From positions 78,969 through 142,968 of the forward strand of contig CALFZX010000016.1 in NCBI GenBank assembly GCA_937952315.1: a stretch of DNA of 64,000 nt, in the 5' to 3' direction. This document shows positions 10,033-34,382 of this stretch, one piece after another; positions within the stretch are counted from its first letter, which is position 1; each line of letters opens with the position of its first letter. Source of the stretch: an uncultured bacterium (lineage in GTDB: Bacteria > Patescibacteriota > Minisyncoccia > CAIUEV01). The notes under the pieces were generated by a model. That model worked only from the letters and a program-made list of their open reading frames with translations, had not been told where the DNA came from and searched no databases. The position numbers and the translations under genes were made by a program.

Positions 10033-11304
10033 ATGGAAAATAAAAAAATAAAGGTAATTACTGCCGATTGGGAAAGACCTGAAGCGTTTTTGCTTTCGGA
10101 CTATATTGTCGGCGGTGGTTTCTCCGTACTAAAAAAAATCATCAAAGGAGAAATTTCCGTCGCTGATGTGATCGAAGAATTGGAGCAGAGCGGATTAAGA
10201 GGGCGCGGGGGATCCGGCTTCCTCTTAGGGCTTAAATGGAAATTGGGACGGGAATATTCTCTGTCGGCCAAAAAATTTATTTTTCCGGCTCGATCCTCGG
10301 CCTATTTTATTTGTAATGCCGACGAGTCGGAGCCGGGAACTTATAAAGATCGTGCTATTTTGGAAAATAATCCCTATCCGGTTTTTGAGTCTATTATTGT
10401 CGGTTCTTATATTCTAGGAGCCAGCGAATCGTTTATTTATCTTAACGGGAACTACAAAGAAACGGCGGTTAAACTGAAGAAAACTATTTCGGAGCTAAAA
10501 AAGGCCGGCTGGTTGGGAAAAAATATTCAAGGAAGTGATTTTTCTTTAAAGATAAAGCTTTTTCAAGGAGCGGGTAGCTATGTCTGCGGAGAAGAGACGG
10601 CTTTAATCAACTCAATTGAAGGTAAAAGAGGCGAACCGAGGTTAAGACCTCCCTATCCGGTCGAGTCCGGTCTTTTCGGCCGTCCAACAGTGGTAAATAA
10701 TGTTGAAACATTAGCTAGCGTGCCATTCATTCTTCAGCACGGAGCGAGTAAATTTAAGAGTTTAAGCCGAAGCCAAGAAAGTTTTGGCACCAAGATCTTT
10801 TTACTGAACGGTCCGGTGAAAAAGCCAGGTCTTCATGAAGCGCCTCTGGGAATTACGATTAAAAAACTGATAGAGAAATTCGGAGGTGGCTTAAATACGA
10901 ATAAAAAAATAAAATTTGCTCAGGTTGGCGGATCCGGCGGGTCAATAATTATGCCTTCCGATTTTGATAAGCCGCTCGGTTTTTCCAAGGAGGAGATCCC
11001 GGCCGGTTCAGGTGCGATCCTCTTGGTTGAAGAAGGCTTCGATGTTCGAAAATTGATTTCTGCTTGGTCTGGTTTCTTTCGACGAGAATCGTGTGGCCAA
11101 TGTGTGCCTTGTCGAGAAGGGACTTATCAACTTTCGCTTTTGGCACAAAAATTGGCCAAAGGAAAACTCAATAAGAACGATCAAGAGAAGATTAAAGATA
11201 TTATTTTTACGATGGAAAGAGCTTCTTTTTGCGCCTTTGGAAATTTTGCGGTAAAGGGTTGGAAGGGAGTAATGGATAATTTAGTCGATGAGATTATCGA
11301 ATAA
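10033..11304 (+). CDS. NADH dehydrogenase 51-kDa flavoprotein subunit homolog (NuoF/HydB-like).
   Basis: GLRGRGGSGF, CNADESEPGTYKDR, the FMN site GAGSYVCGEETALINSIEG, and the [4Fe-4S] site ESCGQCVPCREG. No nuoE or nuoG partner is adjacent. Confidence 0.8.
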   Translation: MENKKIKVITADWERPEAFLLSDYIVGGGFSVLKKIIKGEISVADVIEELEQSGLRGRGGSGFLLGLKWKLGREYSLSAKKFIFPARSSAYFICNADESEPGTYKDRAILENNPYPVFESIIVGSYILGASESFIYLNGNYKETAVKLKKTISELKKAGWLGKNIQGSDFSLKIKLFQGAGSYVCGEETALINSIEGKRGEPRLRPPYPVESGLFGRPTVVNNVETLASVPFILQHGASKFKSLSRSQESFGTKIFLLNGPVKKPGLHEAPLGITIKKLIEKFGGGLNTNKKIKFAQVGGSGGSIIMPSDFDKPLGFSKEEIPAGSGAILLVEEGFDVRKLISAWSGFFRRESCGQCVPCREGTYQLSLLAQKLAKGKLNKNDQEKIKDIIFTMERASFCAFGNFAVKGWKGVMDNLVDEIIE

Positions 11305-23371: not shown

Positions 23372-23869
23372 CTATTTTTCAATCTTCTTATTTTTTGGTT
23401 TCTTTTCTTTCTTCTCTGTCTCCACGAATGATCCGCCGACTTTTTCAACGCCCTGCCGAGCCTTTTTCGAAAGCATCAGCCCTTTGAAGGAGAGCTTTTT
23501 GTCTAATTTTCCATTAGCCAAAATTTTTATTTGCGCCTTTCTTTTGGTTCGACTTCTCTTGTTTAGCTTAACAATACCTTTTTCTCGTAAGCTCTTGGGA
23601 GAGACTTCCTCTCCGTCTTGGAAATGTTTTTCAAGAACTTGAAAATTTAAAATAATATTCTTTAGTTTAGGAGAGGAGAAGCCGGATATCTTAGGAGCGC
23701 GAGCAACCATAGTGGTGTCTCGACCTTCAAAGCCGGGAGCGATATTGCCACCAGATCGAGCTTTTTGACCTTTATTGCCTTTGCCTGAGTAAGTGCCTCT
23801 CTTTCCTCCTCGACCGATCGCTCGTTTCTCCTTTTGCCACTTCGGCTTTTTAATCTCATGAATTTGCAT
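23372..23869 (-). CDS. rplO: 50S ribosomal protein L15.
   Basis: GRGGKRGTYSGKGNKGQKARSGGNIAPGFEGRDT matches the L15 Gly/Arg-rich core. It has a Lys-rich C-terminal extension. Confidence 0.8.
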   Translation of the reverse strand: MQIHEIKKPKWQKEKRAIGRGGKRGTYSGKGNKGQKARSGGNIAPGFEGRDTTMVARAPKISGFSSPKLKNIILNFQVLEKHFQDGEEVSPKSLREKGIVKLNKRSRTKRKAQIKILANGKLDKKLSFKGLMLSKKARQGVEKVGGSFVETEKKEKKPKNKKIEK

Positions 23870-23908
23870 AATGTAAAATTTATAAACTTAAGCTTTTAAC
23901 GATAAAAA

Positions 23909-24508
23909 CTATCTTTCTTGTTTTTTCGACTTGGATTTATTTTCTTCCTTAATCGGTTCGGCCGGTTTTTCAACTTGAGTTTCTCCCTCTATTTTTTTAC
24001 TTTCCGTTTCTGTCTTTTTTCCCTCAATCGTCTGAGATTTTTCAGTATTTTTCAGATTCTTTAAAGCGCCCAACATTGCTTTAGCAGTGTTGATTTTGTT
24101 GTTCGAACCGAGGCTTTTAGCGGTTAAATCCTTGATTCCGCCTAAATCGGCCAAAATTCGAAGCGCTCCGCCGGCGACAATTCCCTTTCCTTCCTTCGCC
24201 GGTTTCAATATGATTCGAGCACTTTCATATTTAAAATCGATTTCGTGGGGAATCGTGCTCCCCCTTCTGACAAAAGATACCAAATGTTTTTTGGCGTCGT
24301 GGATAGCTTTACCGATAGCCAAAGAAACATCCGATCCTTTTGCCACGCCAACGCCAACCTTACCTTTGCGATCGCCAATTGCAACTGTTGCTCGAAAACT
24401 GAATCGTCTTCCGCCCTGGACCACCCTGGCGACGCGAGCGACATGCAACAAGCTGTGATCAAAATCTTTCTCTCTCTTGTCTCTTCTTCTGTGACTATTT
24501 TCCTTCAT
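23909..24508 (-). CDS. rpsE: 30S ribosomal protein S5.
   Basis: VARVARVVQGGRRFSFRATVAIGDRKGKVGVGVAKGSDV...GKGIVAGGALRILADLGGIKD. A Lys/Glu-rich C-terminal extension. Confidence 0.85.
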   Translation of the reverse strand: MKENSHRRRDKREKDFDHSLLHVARVARVVQGGRRFSFRATVAIGDRKGKVGVGVAKGSDVSLAIGKAIHDAKKHLVSFVRRGSTIPHEIDFKYESARIILKPAKEGKGIVAGGALRILADLGGIKDLTAKSLGSNNKINTAKAMLGALKNLKNTEKSQTIEGKKTETESKKIEGETQVEKPAEPIKEENKSKSKKQER

Positions 24509-24539
24509 TTGGATTCAAAAATAATAAATAAAAATAAAA

Positions 24540-24908
24540 CTAAAAAATCAATCCGCCCTCTCTGGCTGAATCGGCCAAGGCTTTGACTTTACCGTGATAT
24601 TTATAACCACCACGATCAAAGACTACTTTGGACACGCCTTTCTCTACGGCCATTGTTGCCAATTTTTTGCCGACTATTTTTGCCCAGTCAACTTTTGTTT
24701 GAGGAGTTTTTGCCTCTTTTTTCAGTTTGAGACTGTTCACGGCAAACAAAACCTTGTTATTCTCATCATCTATCAATTGGGCGTAGACAAATTTGAGACT
24801 AAAAAAAACATTCAGTCTCGGCATCTCGGCCGTTCCTTTAACTTTTCCTCGAACCCGAGAATGGCGTGACTGACGAGCGATATTTCTGGAATTCTTTTGA
24901 CTTGGCAT
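24540..24908 (-). CDS. rplR: 50S ribosomal protein L18.
   Basis: ARQSRHSRVRGKVKGTAEMPRLNVF...VFDRGGYKYHGKVKALADSAREGGLIF. The start was moved to the internal Met (MPSQKN) at 24908; the ORF track begins at 24929. Confidence 0.8.
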   Translation of the reverse strand: MPSQKNSRNIARQSRHSRVRGKVKGTAEMPRLNVFFSLKFVYAQLIDDENNKVLFAVNSLKLKKEAKTPQTKVDWAKIVGKKLATMAVEKGVSKVVFDRGGYKYHGKVKALADSAREGGLIF

Positions 24909-25005
24909 AATGATTATAAATAAAAACAAACTAAAAATAGCTTTAACAGAAAGCTCTTAAAACTTGGTTGTTATTATTAACAATAAATTCGGATTGAGCA
25001 AATTT

Positions 25006-25974: not shown

Positions 25975-26532
25975 TTAAAATTTCAAATAGCGAGCCACCC
26001 GATCGCTGAAACTTTCCTCTTGCTCTTCTTCTCGCAAAAAACTAACTAGCATTTTCCGAATTTTTATAGGATCTTCATCGCCAAAAGGAATATGTATGTG
26101 CGGAAGATAGGCTTTTTTGTGTTTTAGGCTGATAACTTTGAACTCTGGCGGTTCGAAAAAAATCCAAAAAGAATTCAAATCCTTGTAAGGGTAAGTAAAT
26201 TTATCGACAGAAATTCCTCGATTGCCAATGCTGCAAGTAATTTTTCGCGGTTTTTTGATGGAGAACATATAAACGGTTATACCGAGCAGAATAAAGGTTA
26301 TTGAGGTAATAATTTGTTTTGAAATAACAAAGTATCCGACCAAAACAAAAAATAAAAGACCGCCCACCACAAACCAAAGTTTAGATTTATGATAATAATT
26401 GAATTCGTCCGTCTCCCAGCTCATCAGAACATTTTGTTCGCCGATCGGCGAAAAGACGGCTTGGTTTTCGGCCAAATCGTTTTTTACTTCCCCCTTCGAA
26501 TCGCCAGTTTTTTTTCTCAAATCTAAAATCAT
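25975..26532 (-). CDS. Hypothetical membrane protein, translationally coupled to the hydrogenase gene.
   Basis: 185 aa with two central TM helices. Its start at 26532 abuts the hydA stop at 26533. Confidence 0.4.
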   Translation of the reverse strand: MILDLRKKTGDSKGEVKNDLAENQAVFSPIGEQNVLMSWETDEFNYYHKSKLWFVVGGLLFFVLVGYFVISKQIITSITFILLGITVYMFSIKKPRKITCSIGNRGISVDKFTYPYKDLNSFWIFFEPPEFKVISLKHKKAYLPHIHIPFGDEDPIKIRKMLVSFLREEEQEESFSDRVARYLKF

Positions 26533-28338
26533 TTATTTTTTGAATTTGAATTTATAGGGATAATGTTTAGTGTGTAGCAGTTTTTCCGCTTTGCGACTCA
26601 ACGGACGATAAAGAAAATCTCGATAAACTTGCTCTACCACCGGATTTTTATGAGATTCGCGAATGGCCATTTGCTTATCCGTATCATAAATGGCTTTAAT
26701 CCTAGCTTTTCTGATCGTATCATCTGTCGGTATCGGCTGTCCCCCGCCACCGATGCATCCACCCGGGCAAGCCATAATCTCAACAAAATCGTAAGGGCAT
26801 TTTTCTTTTAGCACTTTCTCCACTATTTTTCTGGCGTTTTCCAGTCCGTGAGCCACCGCTATTCGGATCTCTTTGCCGGCCAAATTTATGCTTGCTTCTT
26901 TTATCCATTTTATACCACGAACTTCTGAAAATTCCAATCGCGGAAAACTTTTTCCCGTTAAATAAAAATGAGCGGTTCTTAGGGCGGATTCGGTTACTCC
27001 TCCACTGGCGCCGAAAATAAGACCGGATCCGGAGGGTACTCCCAGCGCGGGATCAAAATCCGAGTCGGGCAATTCATTGAAGGGAATGCGAAAATTCTTA
27101 ATCAAATGGGCCAGTTCTCTCGTAGTGAGAACAAAATCAATATCTTTTTGGCCGTTATTACAAAATTCTCGACGATCAATTTCGTATTTTTTGGCAGTGC
27201 AGGGCATTATTGAAACAACCACAATTTTTTTCGGATTGAGACCGTTTTTTTTGGCATAATAATTTCTAATTAAGGAAGCTAACATAAGTTGAGGTGATTT
27301 TGCGGAAGAAAGATGAGGGAGAATAGCGGGATAGTGTTGCTCTGCAAAAAGCACCCAGGCCGGACAACAGCTGGTAAAAAGAGGTAAATGACAACTGCTA
27401 TTTTTATTTTTGACTATTTCCAAAAATTCGGAACCTTCTTCGACAATGGTAAAATCGGCGCCCGTGACTACATCAAAAATCGTATCGAAGCCGCATTTTC
27501 GGAGAGCGGTAACCATTTTACCGGTAACGACGGTGCCGGGCATAAGTCCGAACTCTTCCCCCAGGGTGACTCTAACTGAAGGAGCGACTTGAGCGATAAC
27601 AATTTTGTCCGGGTCTTTAATAGCCCTGACGACATCGACTAAATTACTTTTTTCTATAATGGCGCCGGTTGGGCAATGGAGAGCGCATTGTCCACAAAAA
27701 GTACACTCCAAGGGCGTGTAATTTTCAGTTCCGATGCCTAAATTGATACCTCTTTTTTGAGTGTTCAGAGCTTTAACCTTTTGAATTTCGTCACAAGCTT
27801 TAACACAGCGACGACATTCAATGCATTTCGTGCTTTCTCTGGCGATAGAAGGGTTTTCTCGATCAATAACTCGACGACTTAAGTTGTCTCGCAATCGTTC
27901 AAGAGCTTCTTCGCTTTTCATCTCGGCGACTTTCGGAACGAATCTAAACTCGTCAATCGAATATTTAACGGCTAAATCTTGGAGTTCGCAATCTTGATTA
28001 CGAAAACAGGTGGAACAAAGTCCGGCGTGCTCCATAAAGAGCATTTCCAAGAGAGTATTTCTGATTTTTGAAATATCTCCGTCGTCTGTTATAATTTCCA
28101 TCCCTTCCATTGTTTTAACAGAGCAACTGGGCACAAATTTAAAATCTTCATTTTCTCCAAAGCGAATTTTCACAAGACAAATTCGGCAATAAGCATTACT
28201 TTTTTCGAAATCGGGATGAGAGCAGAGAGTGGGAATTTCGAATCCGTTATCTTCCAGAAAATCAATTAAGCCGATGCCGATTTTTGACTCAAAAAATTTA
28301 CCGTTAACTTTGATTTTTGTTTTCTTTTTAATCTCCAT
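26533..28338 (-). CDS. [FeFe]-hydrogenase catalytic subunit (HydA-type, with N-terminal 2Fe-2S and 4Fe-4S ferredoxin domains).
   Basis: H-cluster signatures L1 FTSCCPAWV, L2 IMPCTAKKYE and L3 EIMACPGGCIGGGGQP. An N-terminal plant-type ferredoxin fold, and two 4Fe-4S motifs (CIECRRCVKACD, CTFCGQCALHCP). Confidence 0.85.
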   Translation of the reverse strand: MEIKKKTKIKVNGKFFESKIGIGLIDFLEDNGFEIPTLCSHPDFEKSNAYCRICLVKIRFGENEDFKFVPSCSVKTMEGMEIITDDGDISKIRNTLLEMLFMEHAGLCSTCFRNQDCELQDLAVKYSIDEFRFVPKVAEMKSEEALERLRDNLSRRVIDRENPSIARESTKCIECRRCVKACDEIQKVKALNTQKRGINLGIGTENYTPLECTFCGQCALHCPTGAIIEKSNLVDVVRAIKDPDKIVIAQVAPSVRVTLGEEFGLMPGTVVTGKMVTALRKCGFDTIFDVVTGADFTIVEEGSEFLEIVKNKNSSCHLPLFTSCCPAWVLFAEQHYPAILPHLSSAKSPQLMLASLIRNYYAKKNGLNPKKIVVVSIMPCTAKKYEIDRREFCNNGQKDIDFVLTTRELAHLIKNFRIPFNELPDSDFDPALGVPSGSGLIFGASGGVTESALRTAHFYLTGKSFPRLEFSEVRGIKWIKEASINLAGKEIRIAVAHGLENARKIVEKVLKEKCPYDFVEIMACPGGCIGGGGQPIPTDDTIRKARIKAIYDTDKQMAIRESHKNPVVEQVYRDFLYRPLSRKAEKLLHTKHYPYKFKFKK

Positions 28339-28350
28339 TTTTTTCTATGA

Positions 28351-29073
28351 TTAAGGCACTATTGTTTTCTCCGCTTCTTCGCTTTCATCCGACTCCTCTT
28401 CGAGTAAAGCTTCTTCTTCCTCAAGGGAGTCCAGCTCCTCCTCTGTCATCTTCTCTTCAGAATCAACCATTTCCGCCAGATAGTCTATTTTTGTCCATTT
28501 ATCATTAGTTTCATTGTAGCCGTATTCTTCGTAATAATAATCGAAAAATTTATCTTCTCCGCTGATCAGTTGCCAATCCTCCTCGCCCTCTTTATATTTA
28601 GCTAACTCTTTAAGTTTCGGTGCGTCACCGGAAAAATCTTCCACTTGATAGAGTGCTTTCATCCCACCAATTTCCGACTCGCTAGGAAAAATTTCCAAAT
28701 AAACAAAAGTGTTGCCAACAAAAGAAATGCCGGCGCTTGATATATCCCACTTATCATTTTTTGGCGGGAAAATCAATGTGTCCAGATTCTTTATTAAATA
28801 AGCGATTACCTTTTGTCTTTTATTTTCATCGGGTAATTCGTCAAGTTTTTTTTCTTCCTCCAGCGGTTCGGTGTCCTCTATCTCCACTTCTTCCGCATCG
28901 GCCTTGGATTGATCGGCCTGATTTTCCGACGGTGTTTGAAGCGATGGATTCTCTTGGTCTATCGGTTTATCTTGATTTTTATTTTTTACAGAATAGCCGA
29001 GCATTGCGAGACCGATGATCAAAACCGAAGCGCCGACCGACCAATAGATTTTTGAATTTTTAATTTTTTGCAT
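28351..29073 (-). CDS. Hypothetical membrane-anchored acidic protein.
   Basis: An N-terminal TM segment, a central domain, and a highly acidic E/D-rich C-terminus. Confidence 0.4.
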   Translation of the reverse strand: MQKIKNSKIYWSVGASVLIIGLAMLGYSVKNKNQDKPIDQENPSLQTPSENQADQSKADAEEVEIEDTEPLEEEKKLDELPDENKRQKVIAYLIKNLDTLIFPPKNDKWDISSAGISFVGNTFVYLEIFPSESEIGGMKALYQVEDFSGDAPKLKELAKYKEGEEDWQLISGEDKFFDYYYEEYGYNETNDKWTKIDYLAEMVDSEEKMTEEELDSLEEEEALLEEESDESEEAEKTIVP

Positions 29074-29100: not shown

Positions 29101-30879
29101 CTAATCGAATTGTCTTTCCACCTCGTCTCTTTTTTTTCGTAAAAAATCGATCCAAGCTTCAAAAGCTCTGATAATAAATTTAAACGGGGCCTCTACCAAG
29201 AAATCTAAAATGAAAATAAAGACATTGATACGAGAAAACTTGACAGAAAGAAGACGACCAATGCGGACGAACGGCAGGAGAGCGGTATCGAAAATAAGAC
29301 TGAAAATACCTTCTTTATCCTTTGTGACTACCAAATCACGAGTTGATTGTCTGATTAAGGCGCCAAAAAAACTGACCGTACCGGTAAAAATAAGGAAGAT
29401 TAGGGTGGCGACAATGTTAAAATTCAAATAGCCGAGCAATTTTATCAGAAGATAAAGCACTGTAAAGAGCACTGTGATGTAAAATAAATCAAGCATCCTT
29501 TCCGCCCAAGCGCTCTCTCGGTCGGAGATATTTATCGTTTTTAGCTCCTCTTCCAGCTTTGCTCGATAAACGAGAGTGCTGACGCCTTTTAAAATTTCTT
29601 TGGTGTTTTCTTCGTCCGGTTTTCGGGCGGAAGAGGCGATCAAGCTTAGTAAGATCGGTGGAAAAAAGAGATTGATTGCAAGTGATTTGTATTCTATTGA
29701 TTTTGCTTTGAGCATCATTTCGTAGGGGACTTCCAAGAGTATGGCTACTATCATTTTCGTTAAAAAAACATAGAGAATCCCGCGACCGATTCTTTTTTTC
29801 AGTTTTTTGCTTTCCGCCAAGTAACGCAAATTGCATTTGTTTTTAACTTTATCCCAGAGCAGGTATTCTTGAAGGGTAACGGCGCGCGCCTCGGCCGGAT
29901 TGTCCATCACGGCTTCGTAGAAAAAAGCGGAGCAGAGCATATATTTTTTAATCGGGAAAAGAATTTTTGGCATCAAAGGATGCTCGGCGATAACTTCCAT
30001 TTCAAATCTCTTTCTTTTTAACAATTTTATGGCTTCTAAAATTTCATTTTCATTTTGTTCTTTCAGGCTGGTCCATTTGGGAAAATAAATATTGAAAACC
30101 AAGAACCTGATCATGGCGCGATCCGATTTTCGCAGATTACGGAAAACGGCCAAGTAAATTAGCAGATTTAGCAGTTTTTTTTCATCGAAAAAACAATTTT
30201 TTTGAGAAGCTTTTTTCTGCTCTCCCATTATAGAATTTTCAATCGGTTCGACTAGTGATCCAACGCCCAAATATTCTTCCGCTAAATTTTGAACCCCCTT
30301 GATTTTTGAGCCCGGTAGAGGGAACGGAGGACGACTTAAGTTGAACTTGATTTTTGGTCTTAAAGTCTCATAAATAGCATAAATTAGGGCCATTTTTTCT
30401 TTCTGAGGATTGATTTGGTTCTCGATCTCCTCAGAGGCTAAGGAAAAAAACCACCGTCTAATTTTTAAATTTTCAGTGGCACTTTTTATTCGGCTGTTAA
30501 TAATTTGCAAAGCTTTGAGGTATCGAGCGATTATGTTTTCTACTTTTTCAAACAGCTCGTCATTGGCGTCAGACTGATTGATGTGTCCGGCCATAACTAA
30601 TTCTTTGAAAAGCGCATAAGCCAGATCTCGTTTGGTTTTTCTTTGTTCGATGTCCACCAGTCTTTTTAGGATGCGATAAATGGTGGTTCTACGAAGTAAG
30701 TGCTCCTCTTTGTATTGGACGGCACTTCTAACTTTTTCATACCATAAAGCCATTTGACCGGCAATTTCAGAAGTTTCCATTCTAAAAATGGTCTGCCTGG
30801 AGGTATTTTTCTCTTGAGCCGTCTTTTCCACGACTTCAAGAAAATATTCAACGGAAGGATTAATAATTTCTTTTGTCAT
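29101..30879 (-). CDS. Large hypothetical protein: a cytoplasmic N-terminal domain of about 440 aa plus a C-terminal multi-TM region.
   Basis: 592-aa ORF with no recognisable catalytic motif. Four or more hydrophobic helices in the last 150 aa. Confidence 0.4.
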   Translation of the reverse strand: MTKEIINPSVEYFLEVVEKTAQEKNTSRQTIFRMETSEIAGQMALWYEKVRSAVQYKEEHLLRRTTIYRILKRLVDIEQRKTKRDLAYALFKELVMAGHINQSDANDELFEKVENIIARYLKALQIINSRIKSATENLKIRRWFFSLASEEIENQINPQKEKMALIYAIYETLRPKIKFNLSRPPFPLPGSKIKGVQNLAEEYLGVGSLVEPIENSIMGEQKKASQKNCFFDEKKLLNLLIYLAVFRNLRKSDRAMIRFLVFNIYFPKWTSLKEQNENEILEAIKLLKRKRFEMEVIAEHPLMPKILFPIKKYMLCSAFFYEAVMDNPAEARAVTLQEYLLWDKVKNKCNLRYLAESKKLKKRIGRGILYVFLTKMIVAILLEVPYEMMLKAKSIEYKSLAINLFFPPILLSLIASSARKPDEENTKEILKGVSTLVYRAKLEEELKTINISDRESAWAERMLDLFYITVLFTVLYLLIKLLGYLNFNIVATLIFLIFTGTVSFFGALIRQSTRDLVVTKDKEGIFSLIFDTALLPFVRIGRLLSVKFSRINVFIFILDFLVEAPFKFIIRAFEAWIDFLRKKRDEVERQFD

Positions 30880-31040: not shown

Positions 31041-31361
31041 TTATCTACTAAGAGCTTCAATTGCTTCAACTAAGCCTTCTTCCGATTGCAGACCTATTTT
31101 CCGGTCAACTTCTTTGCCGTCGAGAAAAAGCACGATCGTCGGGATAGACATGACTCCGAAGCGAGAGGCGATAGACTGGTTCTCGTCTACATTCAACTTA
31201 TACACTTTGGCTTTGCCTTCAAGCCTTTTGGCCAGTGACTCTAAAATTGGTCCCATGGCTTGACAGGGTCCGCACCAAGGAGCCCAAAAATCAACTATCG
31301 TTACCCCCTTCGATTCGACAACGGATTGATTAAAATCCTTTTCGTTAATTTCCAAAGACAT
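31041..31361 (-). CDS. trxA: Thioredoxin.
   Basis: WAPWCGPCQAMGPILE active site (WCGPC). 106 aa. Confidence 0.9.
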   Translation of the reverse strand: MSLEINEKDFNQSVVESKGVTIVDFWAPWCGPCQAMGPILESLAKRLEGKAKVYKLNVDENQSIASRFGVMSIPTIVLFLDGKEVDRKIGLQSEEGLVEAIEALSR

Positions 31362-31384: not shown

Positions 31385-31741
31385 TCAACCTTTTAATAAA
31401 TCATCTATAGTTAGAACAATAGCGTAGCCCAACAGACCAATGACCAGCCCCACCACTCCGGCCGTTACCGCTTTTTTCGCTCTTTCTATATTTCTATACT
31501 CCCCCTGAGCTGTCAAGTAAAGAATCCCGGCTACAATGAAAGAGATAACCGCCAAAATGCCGAAAATACTGAGCAACCAATTGAGAACTCTCATCAACAC
31601 GGAGGCGATGGGGTGATCTTCTCCCGCACCCGGATCGGGCACTCCGCCTTTTCCCGACCAACCGTCAAAGATGCTTCCGTAGAGAAAGATTTTTCCTTTT
31701 AGTTTATCCGACCAGCGGACTATTTTATCCTTAATCTTCAT
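31385..31741 (-). CDS. VirB2/TrbC-like small membrane protein (pilin-like), paralog 1 of 5.
   Basis: A hydrophilic N-terminal region, then hydrophobic helix 1 (LLSIFGILAVISFIVAGILYLTAQGE), a short charged loop, and hydrophobic helix 2 (AGVVGLVIGLLGYAIVLTI). This is the same architecture as the four upstream paralogs. Confidence 0.45.
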   Translation of the reverse strand: MKIKDKIVRWSDKLKGKIFLYGSIFDGWSGKGGVPDPGAGEDHPIASVLMRVLNWLLSIFGILAVISFIVAGILYLTAQGEYRNIERAKKAVTAGVVGLVIGLLGYAIVLTIDDLLKG

Positions 31742-31767
31742 TTAAGCTGAATTAAAGTATTATTTTT

Positions 31768-32319
31768 TTATTGAACCATGTCGGGAGAAACGGGTAAAGC
31801 TCCTCCGCCCCCCGCTCCCGGACTGTACGGTCTTTGATAGCCACTGGCCGGATCATTCATGTTAACGGGATCTTGAGGAGTGGCCGAATCGTTTCCTCCG
31901 CCGGGACTGCTATCTTGATTCGGGCTGCCAGTATTTACACCGCGACCGGAGACGATAGAATCGATAGTTGAAACAGCGACAAACCCTAAAATTGACACGA
32001 TCACCCCAACTACCGCATAGAGAATGATTTTCTTAGCCTGTTCGATTTTGTCGCTTTCTCCCTGAGAAGTAAGGTAAATAAAGCCACCGTAAATAAAAAT
32101 TATAACGGCCAAAATCCCGATGAAAGTTATGGCCCAGTTGACAACGGAAGTCAAGATGGAAAAAAGGGAGCGATCGGTTAGGCCGGTTACTTTCAGTGAT
32201 CCCGGGTCCCATCCGTCGGCCCCGGCCTCCTTGAATAAAAGAAAAAGCAAACAAATAAAAAATAAAGAAGATATATTAACAATAGATTTTTTAGCTAAAT
32301 TTTTTTTCTCTTTTTCCAT
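31768..32319 (-). CDS. VirB2/TrbC-like small membrane protein, paralog 2 of 5, with a Pro/Gly-rich C-terminal extension.
   Basis: Core AITFIGILAVIIFIYGGFIYLTSQGESDKIEQAKKIILYAVVGVIVSILGFVAVSTI. A 60-aa low-complexity tail (SPNQDSSPGGGNDS...PGAGGGGALP). Confidence 0.45.
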   Translation of the reverse strand: MEKEKKNLAKKSIVNISSLFFICLLFLLFKEAGADGWDPGSLKVTGLTDRSLFSILTSVVNWAITFIGILAVIIFIYGGFIYLTSQGESDKIEQAKKIILYAVVGVIVSILGFVAVSTIDSIVSGRGVNTGSPNQDSSPGGGNDSATPQDPVNMNDPASGYQRPYSPGAGGGGALPVSPDMVQ

Positions 32320-32346
32320 TTGTTTTTTTAAATGTTTTTAAAAATT

Positions 32347-32640
32347 TCAGATGAATAATTTTGCTACAAAAAACAGAAAAATTGATAAAAGAATCATCCC
32401 GAAGGAAAGAAACAATGAATTATGGGCTTGGATCATTCTATCCTCATCGCCCGCTCCCAAAAAATAGGAAAAAAGAGTGATGAAAAGCATAACTGTTCCA
32501 ATGCCACCGACAAAGACAGAAACGGCCAAAAGAAACGGGGAAATAAACTCCGCTCGCGAAGAAGAAGCGGAAATCGAAGGAACACTTACATCCGCTTCTC
32601 TAAAATTATTACCGATAATTTCAAATAAAAAACTGAGCAT
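32347..32640 (-). CDS. VirB2/TrbC-like small membrane protein, divergent paralog 3 of 5.
   Basis: VFVGGIGTVMLFITLFSYFLGAGDEDRMIQAHNSLFLSFGMILLSIFLFFV. Same helix-loop-helix layout, with GxGDE in the loop. Confidence 0.4.
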   Translation of the reverse strand: MLSFLFEIIGNNFREADVSVPSISASSSRAEFISPFLLAVSVFVGGIGTVMLFITLFSYFLGAGDEDRMIQAHNSLFLSFGMILLSIFLFFVAKLFI

Positions 32641-32669
32641 TTAAATTTTTTCTATTTATTTCGCTAAAA

Positions 32670-33017
32670 TTAGGATCCTTGATTACCTTGAGTGATCATC
32701 TGGACAGTGTAGACGGCGACAAAGCCTAACATGGCTACAACCAAACCGACAATAGCGTAGGTCATGGCATTTTTCGCTTTTGTGACTTTTGCTTCGTCAC
32801 CGGCGGCGGTCATATACATAAAACCTGCATAAATAAACATAATAACTCCTAGAACTCCAATTGCCGTGATGGCGAAATTGATAAATTTCAAAGCCATGTC
32901 GAAAATCGATCCTTTGGCTATTCCAGGGGCTTGGCTCGCTACGCTGGTAAGACCCGCCTGAGCTACGGGAACAAATCCCAAGTACTTTCTGGCACTTTTT
33001 TCTTTTTCGTGATTCAT
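32670..33017 (-). CDS. VirB2/TrbC-like small membrane protein, paralog 4 of 5.
   Basis: ITAIGVLGVIMFIYAGFMYMTAAGDEAKVTKAKNAMTYAIVGLVVAMLGFVAV. About 70% identical to paralog 5 over the core. Confidence 0.5.
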   Translation of the reverse strand: MNHEKEKSARKYLGFVPVAQAGLTSVASQAPGIAKGSIFDMALKFINFAITAIGVLGVIMFIYAGFMYMTAAGDEAKVTKAKNAMTYAIVGLVVAMLGFVAVYTVQMITQGNQGS

Positions 33018-33042
33018 TTTTTTTCAATAAATTATTAAAAAA

Positions 33043-33372
33043 TTATTTAGTAATCATATCAATCGTCTTGACGACCACAAATCCCATTAAAGAAACGATT
33101 ATACCTACGATGGCATATGTCATAGTGCTTTTGGCTTTACTGATCTTCGATTCGTCTCCGCTGGCCGTTAAGTACATAAAGCCGGCGTAAATGAAAATTA
33201 TAACAGCCAAGACACCAATAGCGGTAATGGAAAAATCAATAAATTTAGTTGCTATTGTAAAAAAATTACCTCTTGGCATCTCAACATCATCCAAACCATC
33301 ACCAAATCCAGCTTGGGCGATCGGAAATAGCGATAATAGGTTTACAGTCCATTCCTCTCTTTTTGTTTTCAT
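33043..33372 (-). CDS. VirB2/TrbC-like small membrane protein, paralog 5 of 5.
   Basis: Signal-like N-terminus (LLSLFPIAQAGFG), then ITAIGVLAVIIFIYAGFMYLTASGDESKISKAKSTMTYAIVGIIVSLMGFVVV. This matches the VirB2/TrbC pilin two-helix core. Confidence 0.5.
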   Translation of the reverse strand: MKTKREEWTVNLLSLFPIAQAGFGDGLDDVEMPRGNFFTIATKFIDFSITAIGVLAVIIFIYAGFMYLTASGDESKISKAKSTMTYAIVGIIVSLMGFVVVKTIDMITK

Positions 33373-33450
33373 TTTTTTTGTTTAAAAATTTTTAATAATT
33401 ATTTCTTCTGCAAAAAATTGGCAAAAAAGATAATTATTAAAAATCGATCT

Positions 33451-33477
33451 GGTCTCGGGCTTTAAAAACCCGAGACC
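33451..33477 (-). terminator. Strong hairpin terminator after the KH-protein gene, separating it from the pilin-like array.
   Basis: A 9-bp perfect stem GGTCTCGGG/CCCGAGACC with loop ctttaaaaa. On the minus strand a T-tract follows. Confidence 0.55.
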
Positions 33478-33490
33478 AAGCTTTCGATTT

Positions 33491-33929: not shown

Positions 33930-34382
33930 TTATTTTATGAAAACACAGTAAGAATCATTGCCGGCCGGCCCACCCGTGTCGGTATTGGCGCATTGAGTAC
34001 CTTCCAATAAGCAAGTGGCGCATATTCGATAGAGCCCGTAATTTGGCGCCCCGGTGCAATTGCAGGTAGTGCAATTGCAGAGAGTGTAGACCGTCGATCC
34101 GTCTTCTTGATTAGATACATTGTCAATCAATTGAGCGCTTACCAAAGAATTCATCATAGTTGACCAATTATCCATAGTTGGCCAAGTTCCCTTCATCGAA
34201 TAATACATGGAAAGAGACCCTCTGACATTTTCTACATTGGACATTCTCCTAGTGTCTTTTGCGTTCTTCTGTGATCTTGAAAAAGAAGTAATCATAAGAG
34301 CGGTCAGAATACCGATTATTGCGATAACAACGAGCATTTCAATTAGGGTGAACGCTGATTTTTGTTTTTTTGTTTTTGTCAT
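33930..34382 (-). CDS. Type IV pilin/pseudopilin with a Cys-rich C-terminal domain.
   Basis: Class III signal with the N-methylation motif KSAFTLIEMLVVIAIIGILTAL. 8 Cys in the last 50 aa (CNCTTCNCTG...CATC...QC...YC). The gene starts 8 nt after the rpoD stop. Confidence 0.75.
   Translation of the reverse strand: MTKTKKQKSAFTLIEMLVVIAIIGILTALMITSFSRSQKNAKDTRRMSNVENVRGSLSMYYSMKGTWPTMDNWSTMMNSLVSAQLIDNVSNQEDGSTVYTLCNCTTCNCTGAPNYGLYRICATCLLEGTQCANTDTGGPAGNDSYCVFIK

Follow-up and report, generated by a model that had tools for sequence, protein, structure and literature searches.

The DNA considered here is a stretch of 64,000 nucleotides from an uncultured bacterium (contig CALFZX010000016.1, positions 78,969 to 142,968), hereafter the window, whose minus strand carries five consecutive genes encoding small membrane proteins related to the pilins of type IV secretion systems (T4SS). 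Numbered in the order of transcription, these genes are g1 (33043..33372, 109 aa), g2 (32670..33017, 115 aa), g3 (32347..32640, 97 aa), g4 (31768..32319, 183 aa) and g5 (31385..31741, 118 aa). They are separated by A/T-rich spacers of 25 (g1-g2), 29 (g2-g3), 27 (g3-g4) and 26 nt (g4-g5), and g5 is followed after 23 nt by a thioredoxin gene on the same strand (31041..31361), which carries the Pfam label Thioredoxin in the precomputed annotation of identical contigs. Translation of the open reading frames (ORFs) bears out the layout described in an earlier, sequence-only reading of this DNA, i.e. five same-strand genes of 97-183 aa that lie 25-29 nt apart and are followed by thioredoxin at 23 nt (paralogues 5 and 4 of that reading are g1 and g2 here). 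At ~39-41% G+C, the array has the same base composition as the rest of the window.

Family membership of the five proteins and identity of the host

Hydropathy analysis shows the architecture announced by the sequence-only reading in all five proteins, that is two long hydrophobic segments, predicted to be helices, on either side of a short charged loop (SGDES in g1, AGDEA in g2, AGDED in g3, QGESD in g4 and QGEYR in g5). An AlphaFold2 model of g2 is accordingly a helical hairpin (residues 38-70 and 75-113) with a predicted local distance difference test score of ~85 in its core, and the distribution of charges in the sequences is compatible with an out-in-out topology. Leaders with AXA-type motifs could be read in the sequences (AQA in g1 and g2), while g4 has a classical N-terminal hydrophobic signal segment (residues 8-34) and is the one paralogue with a Pro/Gly-rich tail, which spans ~59 residues, is acidic and is also rich in Asp. 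The only cysteine in the five pilins is in the signal peptide of g4, and the thioredoxin is devoid of a signal peptide.

Four of the five proteins pass the gathering cut-off (26.6 bits) of the Pfam family PF18895 (T4SS_pilin), with 29.5 (g1), 36.7 (g2), 35.8 (g4) and 33.9 bits (g5). This is a very large family: clustering at 50% identity leaves 66,022 representatives with E <= 0.001. The fifth protein, g3, had no Pfam match in a whole-protein search, but a hidden Markov model (HMM) made from the other pilins and built without g3 recovered it at E 1.7e-4 and its orthologues at values down to 2.4e-10. Furthermore, when a profile of six g3 orthologues was compared with the pilin family using hhalign, a match of 97% probability (E 8.6e-11) was found over 65 columns that include the loop and the two helices. 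This makes g3 a divergent member of the family, as its description as the divergent paralogue had implied. In NCBIfam, the best match of all five proteins is NF045849 (Mbov_0395 pilin-like conjugal transfer protein), with scores of 15.5-31.5 bits that are all below the cut-off of 40 bits (E 0.01 for g3). The family was also compared with six VirB2/TrbC proteins, encoded by annotated genes located between virB1 and virB3 on plasmids of Agrobacterium, Komagataeibacter, Sphingobium, Bradyrhizobium and Sinorhizobium, which yielded an hhalign probability of 80% (E 1.4e-5) over just 37 columns corresponding to the amphipathic segment and helix 1, a value that hydrophobic composition could inflate. 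Together, the PF18895 matches, the link of g3 to the family and, less firmly, this resemblance to VirB2/TrbC support the original proposal that the five genes encode VirB2/TrbC-like T4SS pilin-family proteins in a bacterium of the candidate phyla radiation (CPR).

The host, as judged from its genes, is a Moranbacteria-like member of the Patescibacteria because of three converging traits. The DnaK encoded in the window displays 71-88% identity to proteins named Candidatus Moranbacteria or Moraniibacteriota, which are its nearest named relatives. The 33 related loci that were retrieved from one-genome-per-species contigs (best match 82% identical; referred to by L numbers below) bear the names Saccharibacteria, Peribacteria, Gracilibacteria, Paceibacterota, Staskawiczbacteria, Berkelbacteria and Sungiibacteriota or generic labels of metagenome-assembled genomes, with one contig labelled Flavobacteriales. 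Finally, the genes for ribosomal proteins L18, S5 and L15 adjoin each other (23372-24929), and the 39 nt between S5 and L15 are too few to accommodate L30, a gene that CPR bacteria are recognised to lack. L15 is followed by a gene for a MiaB-like radical-SAM protein, not by secY.

Conservation across species and loss of g1

The array is syntenic with that of a 902-kb sister scaffold (L007), which has five pilin genes, and with those of four species representatives (L012-L015), which have four genes and lack g1, amounting to six related species when the window is counted. The order array-thioredoxin is kept only in this close clade. In every other species, each window paralogue is closest to the gene at the same position, with identities between orthologues of 55-88% (31-64% for g3, the lowest value being found in the two most distant species), as opposed to 18-56% between non-orthologous genes. 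This gene-for-gene conservation, together with the four Pfam matches above cut-off, places the array far beyond chance. In the comparison with the sister scaffold, the ratio of nonsynonymous to synonymous substitution rates (dN/dS) is 0.04-0.19 wherever dS can be estimated (0.04 for g1 and 0.08 for g5), and the pilins (88% identity for g1, 82% for g2 and 80% for g5) show a degree of conservation close to that of nearby housekeeping genes (90% for KH, 82% for the thioredoxin and 85% for hydA). Conservation of the two-helix core is 80-96% for g1, g2, g4 and g5, and 68% for g3, while the leader, the N-terminal segment and the tail of g4 are more variable.

The five paralogues differ markedly from one another, with a mean identity within the array of ~36-38% and a maximum of 52%. 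That maximum is reached by g1 and g2, which were correctly singled out by the sequence-only reading as the closest pair, although their identity in the core is 66% (48/73) and not the ~70% it had given; the remaining pairs are 24-48% identical. Exact nucleotide matches between any two paralogues are no longer than 12 nt, dS between paralogues is saturated, and no gene conversion tract was found. The paralogues are therefore poor substrates for homologous recombination, which runs counter to the earlier suggestion that their similarity would feed recombinational variation. Positional orthology, purifying selection and the lack of conversion argue instead for a long-standing specialisation of each paralogue, and against a recombining variant cassette. 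Since both order and sequence have been kept paralogue by paralogue, and since 2-8 domains of this type are fused in other lineages (see below), the paralogues are most likely specialised subunits that act together in one structure rather than interchangeable variants. Stable one-to-one orthology under purifying selection and without conversion, in an array of this kind, is what the present analysis contributes that is new.

The only rearrangement seen is a deletion of g1. Strain variants L001, L003, L004 and L006, contigs from one series of sequencing runs that are 98-99% identical to the window, carry only g2-g5, as do species L012-L015. A 12-nt direct repeat (AAAAAAAATGAA, minus strand) lies over the start codons of both g1 (33368..33379) and g2 (33013..33024), 355 nt apart, and corresponds to the two end-points of the deletion. 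The junction is precise, as the region upstream of g1 passes into the g2 coding sequence inside the repeat (355-bp deletion), and a deletion simulated between the repeats aligns without gaps to the four-gene strain L001 (239/246 identical). These four-gene strains indicate that some populations can do without g1, which is nevertheless the paralogue best conserved between the window and the sister scaffold. g1 displays 46-56% identity to every g2, and g2 of L014/L015 is 55-57% identical to that of the window; g1 could be either an old duplicate that has been lost repeatedly or a younger one that has diverged fast.

The C-terminus of g4 (31768-31800) ends in a LP(V/I)SP(D/E)M-x-(Q/N) motif that is conserved, along with the tail, in the window, L007, L012 and L013. 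This motif may be a processing or recognition site. Sortase anchoring was considered and is unlikely on sequence grounds because nothing follows the LPVSP motif that would resemble a sortase signal, neither a hydrophobic segment nor a charged tail.

Transcription and genomic surroundings

Upstream of the array are genes for a DksA/TraR zinc-finger protein, RpoD, a type IV pilin with an N_methyl motif and a KhpA-type KH protein. The rpoD / type IV pilin / KH unit ends in an intrinsic-terminator hairpin (33449..33479, minus strand) with a 14-bp stem including 7 G-C pairs, a 3-nt loop and a T-run (ATCGATTTTT). This hairpin, the strong terminator of the sequence-only reading, is kept in L007 and L012, while a different and fully complementary stem is found at the same place in L013. 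Between the terminator and g1 lies a leader (33373..33448, minus strand) that would probably comprise the promoter region of the array. Despite saturated synonymous sites, the ~37 nt ahead of the first start codon hardly differ between the window, L007, L012 and L013. A 24-mer within the leader (33380-33403) occurs once in the window, and the same leader directly precedes g2 in the four-gene species and strains. There is a weak sigma-70-like match at 33424-33395, and an Rfam search of the leader matched no family. The leader also holds two copies of a palindrome (ATAATTAT), spaced by ~35 nt, which are possibly the site of a regulator. No internal terminator was found in the array, which together with the short spacers suggests a single transcript running from the leader through g5 and probably including the thioredoxin gene.

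The order rpoD, type IV pilin, KH, array, thioredoxin, 592-aa protein, 240-aa protein and hydrogenase is shared with L007 and L012-L015. Essentially every ORF in the window of at least ~130 aa was compared with Pfam, and unassigned ones with NCBIfam. The assignable ones all have housekeeping functions: DnaG, GroEL, Ddl, a NuoF-like protein, SmpB, AsnRS/AspRS-type enzymes, CorA, a MiaB-like protein, ribosomal proteins, [FeFe] hydrogenase, glycosyltransferases, DnaX, DnaK, a MacB-type ABC system, ATP synthase, TIM and IF-2.

Several of the neighbouring genes have features of their own. The type IV pilin gene (33930-34382), whose product has an N_methyl motif and a Cys-rich C-terminal half, is the fastest-evolving of the neighbourhood (52% identity to L007, dN 0.38). 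Downstream of the thioredoxin gene, a 592-aa membrane protein (29101-30879, 87% identity to L007) and a 240-aa protein (28351-29073) belong to no Pfam or NCBIfam family and are conserved only in the close clade. These are followed by the large subunit of an [FeFe] hydrogenase (26533-28338), which together with a NuoF-like flavoprotein encoded at 10033-11304 is found here in a small-genome bacterium. A 185-aa protein without a known family (25975-26532) has homologues a few kb from arrays in the distant loci L019 (E 3e-11) and L035 (3e-14), which may be a coincidence.

Arrays in other lineages and the proposed role of the paralogues

Arrays of this kind are already known. In a survey based on PF18895 and PF04956 (TrbC/VIRB2), VirB2-like pilins were reported in 1,948 Patescibacteria assemblies that also have VirB4, with a pilin gene near virB4 in 1,135 assemblies and far from it in ~40% of cases (Quinonero-Coronel et al., 2025, Microb Genom, PMC12102498). 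According to the same survey, 383 assemblies contain 441 arrays with 2-11 pilin genes; these are most abundant in Saccharimonadia and Microgenomatia, and identity within arrays is 25% on average and 54% at most. By the definition used there (at least two PF18895/PF04956 genes in tandem or with one gene between them, in a Patescibacteria host), the window locus is such an array, its four Pfam-positive genes being placed around g3. It shares Pfam family, phylum, tandem layout and a similar intra-array identity with the published Patescibacteria arrays, including those of Southlakia epibionticum and the 'Sec secreted array' of Nanosynbacter lyticus TM7x. The array was thus correctly recognized, but it is fairly ordinary and no new kind of system. 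It differs from published arrays by its housekeeping surroundings (rpoD, KH, thioredoxin, hydrogenase), which are free of T4SS genes for at least 30 kb, and by a Moranbacteria-like lineage that is neither Saccharimonadia nor Microgenomatia. S. epibionticum is the only one of these bacteria in which function has been put to the test. In strain ML1 of that species, the pilin series is essential and is found inside a T4SS cluster, SEML1_0006-0019 (Wang et al., 2023, Cell, PMC10633639), a case that a 2025 review presents as the sole exception among T4SSs of the Gram-positive type, from which VirB2 is otherwise missing (PMC12857230).

Nearly all of the 33 related loci carry 2-9 tandem pilin genes, and other arrangements are found among relatives of the family. 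Many family members are fused 'polypilins', single polypeptides in which one signal peptide is followed by 2-8 pilin domains in tandem, such as P0264 (552 aa, six domains), P0268 (820 aa, eight) and P0275 (283 aa, three), and a two-domain fused pilin is encoded at L009:9325-9936. A term search of the 2025 survey returned no mention of fused pilins (PMC12102498). By the gene-fusion argument, such proteins suggest that the domains act together in one structure. In nine loci from several CPR classes, a gene for an extracellular solute-binding protein (SBP_bac_1/8) is directly upstream of the first pilin gene (L024:7689-9017, L034:1879-3207, L009:7918-9315, L041:7543-8850, L022:8426-9922, L038:8392-9753, L039:8251-9537, L037:8096-9517 and L032:193-639). 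It abuts or overlaps the first pilin gene in most of them (gap <= 85 nt), often with gyrA just upstream; the window has no SBP_bac_1/8 gene. A large protein recurring upstream of arrays, considered as a possible VirB4, proved to be GyrA. In Peribacteria-type loci, a 347-aa T2SSE-family ATPase of the PilT/VirB11 superfamily is encoded directly upstream of an array of 3-5 pilin genes (L016:72-1031, L017:8660-9703, L018:8580-9623, L021:8729-9772 and L023:1434-2474).

The reading that we favour, with moderate confidence, is that the locus is a chromosomal operon of five VirB2-like pilin paralogues supplying a VirB4-type T4SS whose genes would lie in another part of the genome, and that these paralogues are specialised subunits that co-operate in one structure. 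Based on the VirB2 paradigm and on the distribution of charges, each protein would insert in the cytoplasmic membrane with its acidic N-terminal segment and its C-terminus outside and its Lys-rich loop inside. The leader would be cleaved off behind AQA in the case of g1 and g2, and in front of DGW in g4 and, perhaps, in g5. The VirB4-type ATPase and its T4SS would then extract the subunits and assemble a surface filament or conduit, which would serve an epibiotic lifestyle and on which the acidic Pro/Gly tail of g4 would be displayed.

A number of findings weigh against this reading. Although the PF04956 HMM check suggested by the sequence-only reading was positive for the related pilin model PF18895 in four of the five proteins, it was negative for PF04956 itself, whose threshold (27.9 bits) is reached by none (17.0 bits for g1 and 20.4 for g5, no match for g2, g3 and g4). 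Neither g3 nor g5 has a convincing Sec signal peptide that can be read from its sequence. In fold searches, the g2-type hairpin was indistinguishable from thousands of other hairpins, and a search of PDB sequences with the family profile gave nothing meaningful, hence no relative with a solved structure. A pilus built from PF18895 proteins has yet to be observed in any organism, and reviews go no further than a 'potential to elaborate conjugative pili'. As regards the machine itself, the sequence-only reading was right that VirB4, VirB6 and a coupling ATPase are missing from the window: Pfam, NCBIfam and jackhmmer scans detected no VirB4, VirB6, VirB3 or type IV coupling protein (T4CP) in its 64 kb, jackhmmer seeds from pCF10 (PrgJ, PcfC, PrgH and PrgI) having no match there, and the 10 kb past its right end hold no T4SS genes. 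VirB4 was found within 10 kb of only two of the 33 related arrays, in L019 (Saccharimonadales) and L044 (jackhmmer, PrgJ seed), and no VirB6-like (PrgH seed) or VirB3-like (PrgI seed) protein was detected near any of them by jackhmmer. An 868-aa VirB4 candidate picked up by a Walker-A scan in L033 is T4CP-like according to Pfam. With a profile of the L019/L044 VirB4, the best 120 matches were all from Saccharimonadales and ~90% identical to that of L019, and none was on the sister scaffold or in this genome. Among the matches listed (P0025-P0144), Saccharimonadales VirB4 accounts for over 100 separate clusters at 90% identity, each ~88-95% identical to the L019 protein, an unusual degree of conservation for a T4SS ATPase over many metagenomes. 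The figure of two in 33 nevertheless implies that arrays far from virB4 are common and, since VirB4 has a published prevalence of 80% (2,417/3,035 assemblies; PMC12102498), it is likely that one is encoded elsewhere in this genome.

A different possibility is that the proteins do not form a T4SS pilus at all, but a VirB4-independent membrane or surface structure, for example one capturing nutrients with a solute-binding protein, or are small membrane or holin-like peptides. This would fit the 31 of 33 related loci that lack VirB4 within 10 kb, the nine in which a solute-binding-protein gene adjoins the first pilin gene, and the up to eight pilin domains fused behind one signal peptide, which are awkward for a simple homopolymeric pilus; moreover, the name of the PF18895 family reflects annotation, not experiment. 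We consider it unlikely, however, because the pilin series of Saccharibacteria is inside an essential T4SS cluster, with a comparable situation in L019, because pilins are near virB4 in the 1,135 assemblies mentioned above, and because no holin or transporter family matched any of the five proteins above threshold in Pfam or NCBIfam. Profile similarities point in the same direction. With TrbC/VirB2 pilins such as Agrobacterium VirB2 and RP4 TrbC, the window proteins share small size, a leader, two hydrophobic helices, a short loop and a weak but consistent profile similarity (17-20 bits with PF04956), although they score below the family threshold, their genes are not beside virB1, virB3 or virB4, and the host is monoderm-like. 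The Mbov_0395 family (NF045849), found in integrative and conjugative elements (ICEs) of Mycoplasma, provides the best NCBIfam match and likewise comes from wall-less or monoderm bacteria with reduced genomes, but scores remain below 40 bits and the window locus is not on an ICE.

The sequence-only reading had also raised the idea of an array of pilin variants, in which the genes would be alternative versions of one pilin, shuffled by recombination or expressed singly so as to alter the specificity of the cell surface or escape the defences of the host. The tandem copies are indeed several and divergent, variability is greatest in the predicted exposed N-terminal segment and in the tail of g4, copy number varies between strains (g1 being present or absent), and the 2025 survey raises host-range versatility, the variant idea being put forward by analogy with Bartonella and Anaplasma (PMC12102498). 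As cited there, these bacteria also have several virB2 paralogues in tandem, to which a role in antigenic or host-range variation is ascribed, whereas the window paralogues are stably orthologous and under purifying selection. Positional orthologues in up to five other species that are much more alike than the paralogues, the dN/dS values and the lack of any conversion tract or longer shared match, the failure to find inverted repeats, a recombinase or silent cassettes nearby, and a microhomology deletion of g1 as the sole rearrangement make this explanation very unlikely. In addition, a single leader and short spacers imply that all copies are co-transcribed, and fused polyproteins elsewhere imply that they are used simultaneously. 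Most improbable of all is a role as accessory parts of a type IV pilus or DNA-uptake (competence) apparatus. It is suggested by the N_methyl pilin gene two genes upstream in a neighbourhood kept in the close clade, but the N_methyl motif (PF07963) is absent from all five array proteins in Pfam searches, a conserved terminator separates the two units, the linkage is lost outside the close clade, and in S. epibionticum the T4SS is still essential once competence has been abolished.

A stronger version of the co-operating-subunits reading, which is rather unlikely, holds that the five paralogues are obligate partners which assemble together, at fixed positions or in a fixed stoichiometry, into a single heteromeric surface filament or membrane conduit, maybe independent of a neighbouring T4SS and maybe, in other CPR lineages, working with an abutting solute-binding protein. 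If true, PF18895 arrays and fused 'polypilins' of 2-8 domains would amount to surface organelles of a new, multi-subunit kind rather than to spare conjugative pilins.

The role of the T4SS in Patescibacteria has been described as completely unknown (PMC11665869), and yet T4SS genes and the pilin series belong to a small number of systems for which an essential role in the epibiotic life of these bacteria has been demonstrated. In this context, g1 is a dispensable member of the array that could be followed in natural populations, where its loss amounts to a natural knockout at the strain level. More generally, with five paralogues kept one-to-one under purifying selection, the locus represents a clean comparative case, which favours specialised subunits over variant cassettes.

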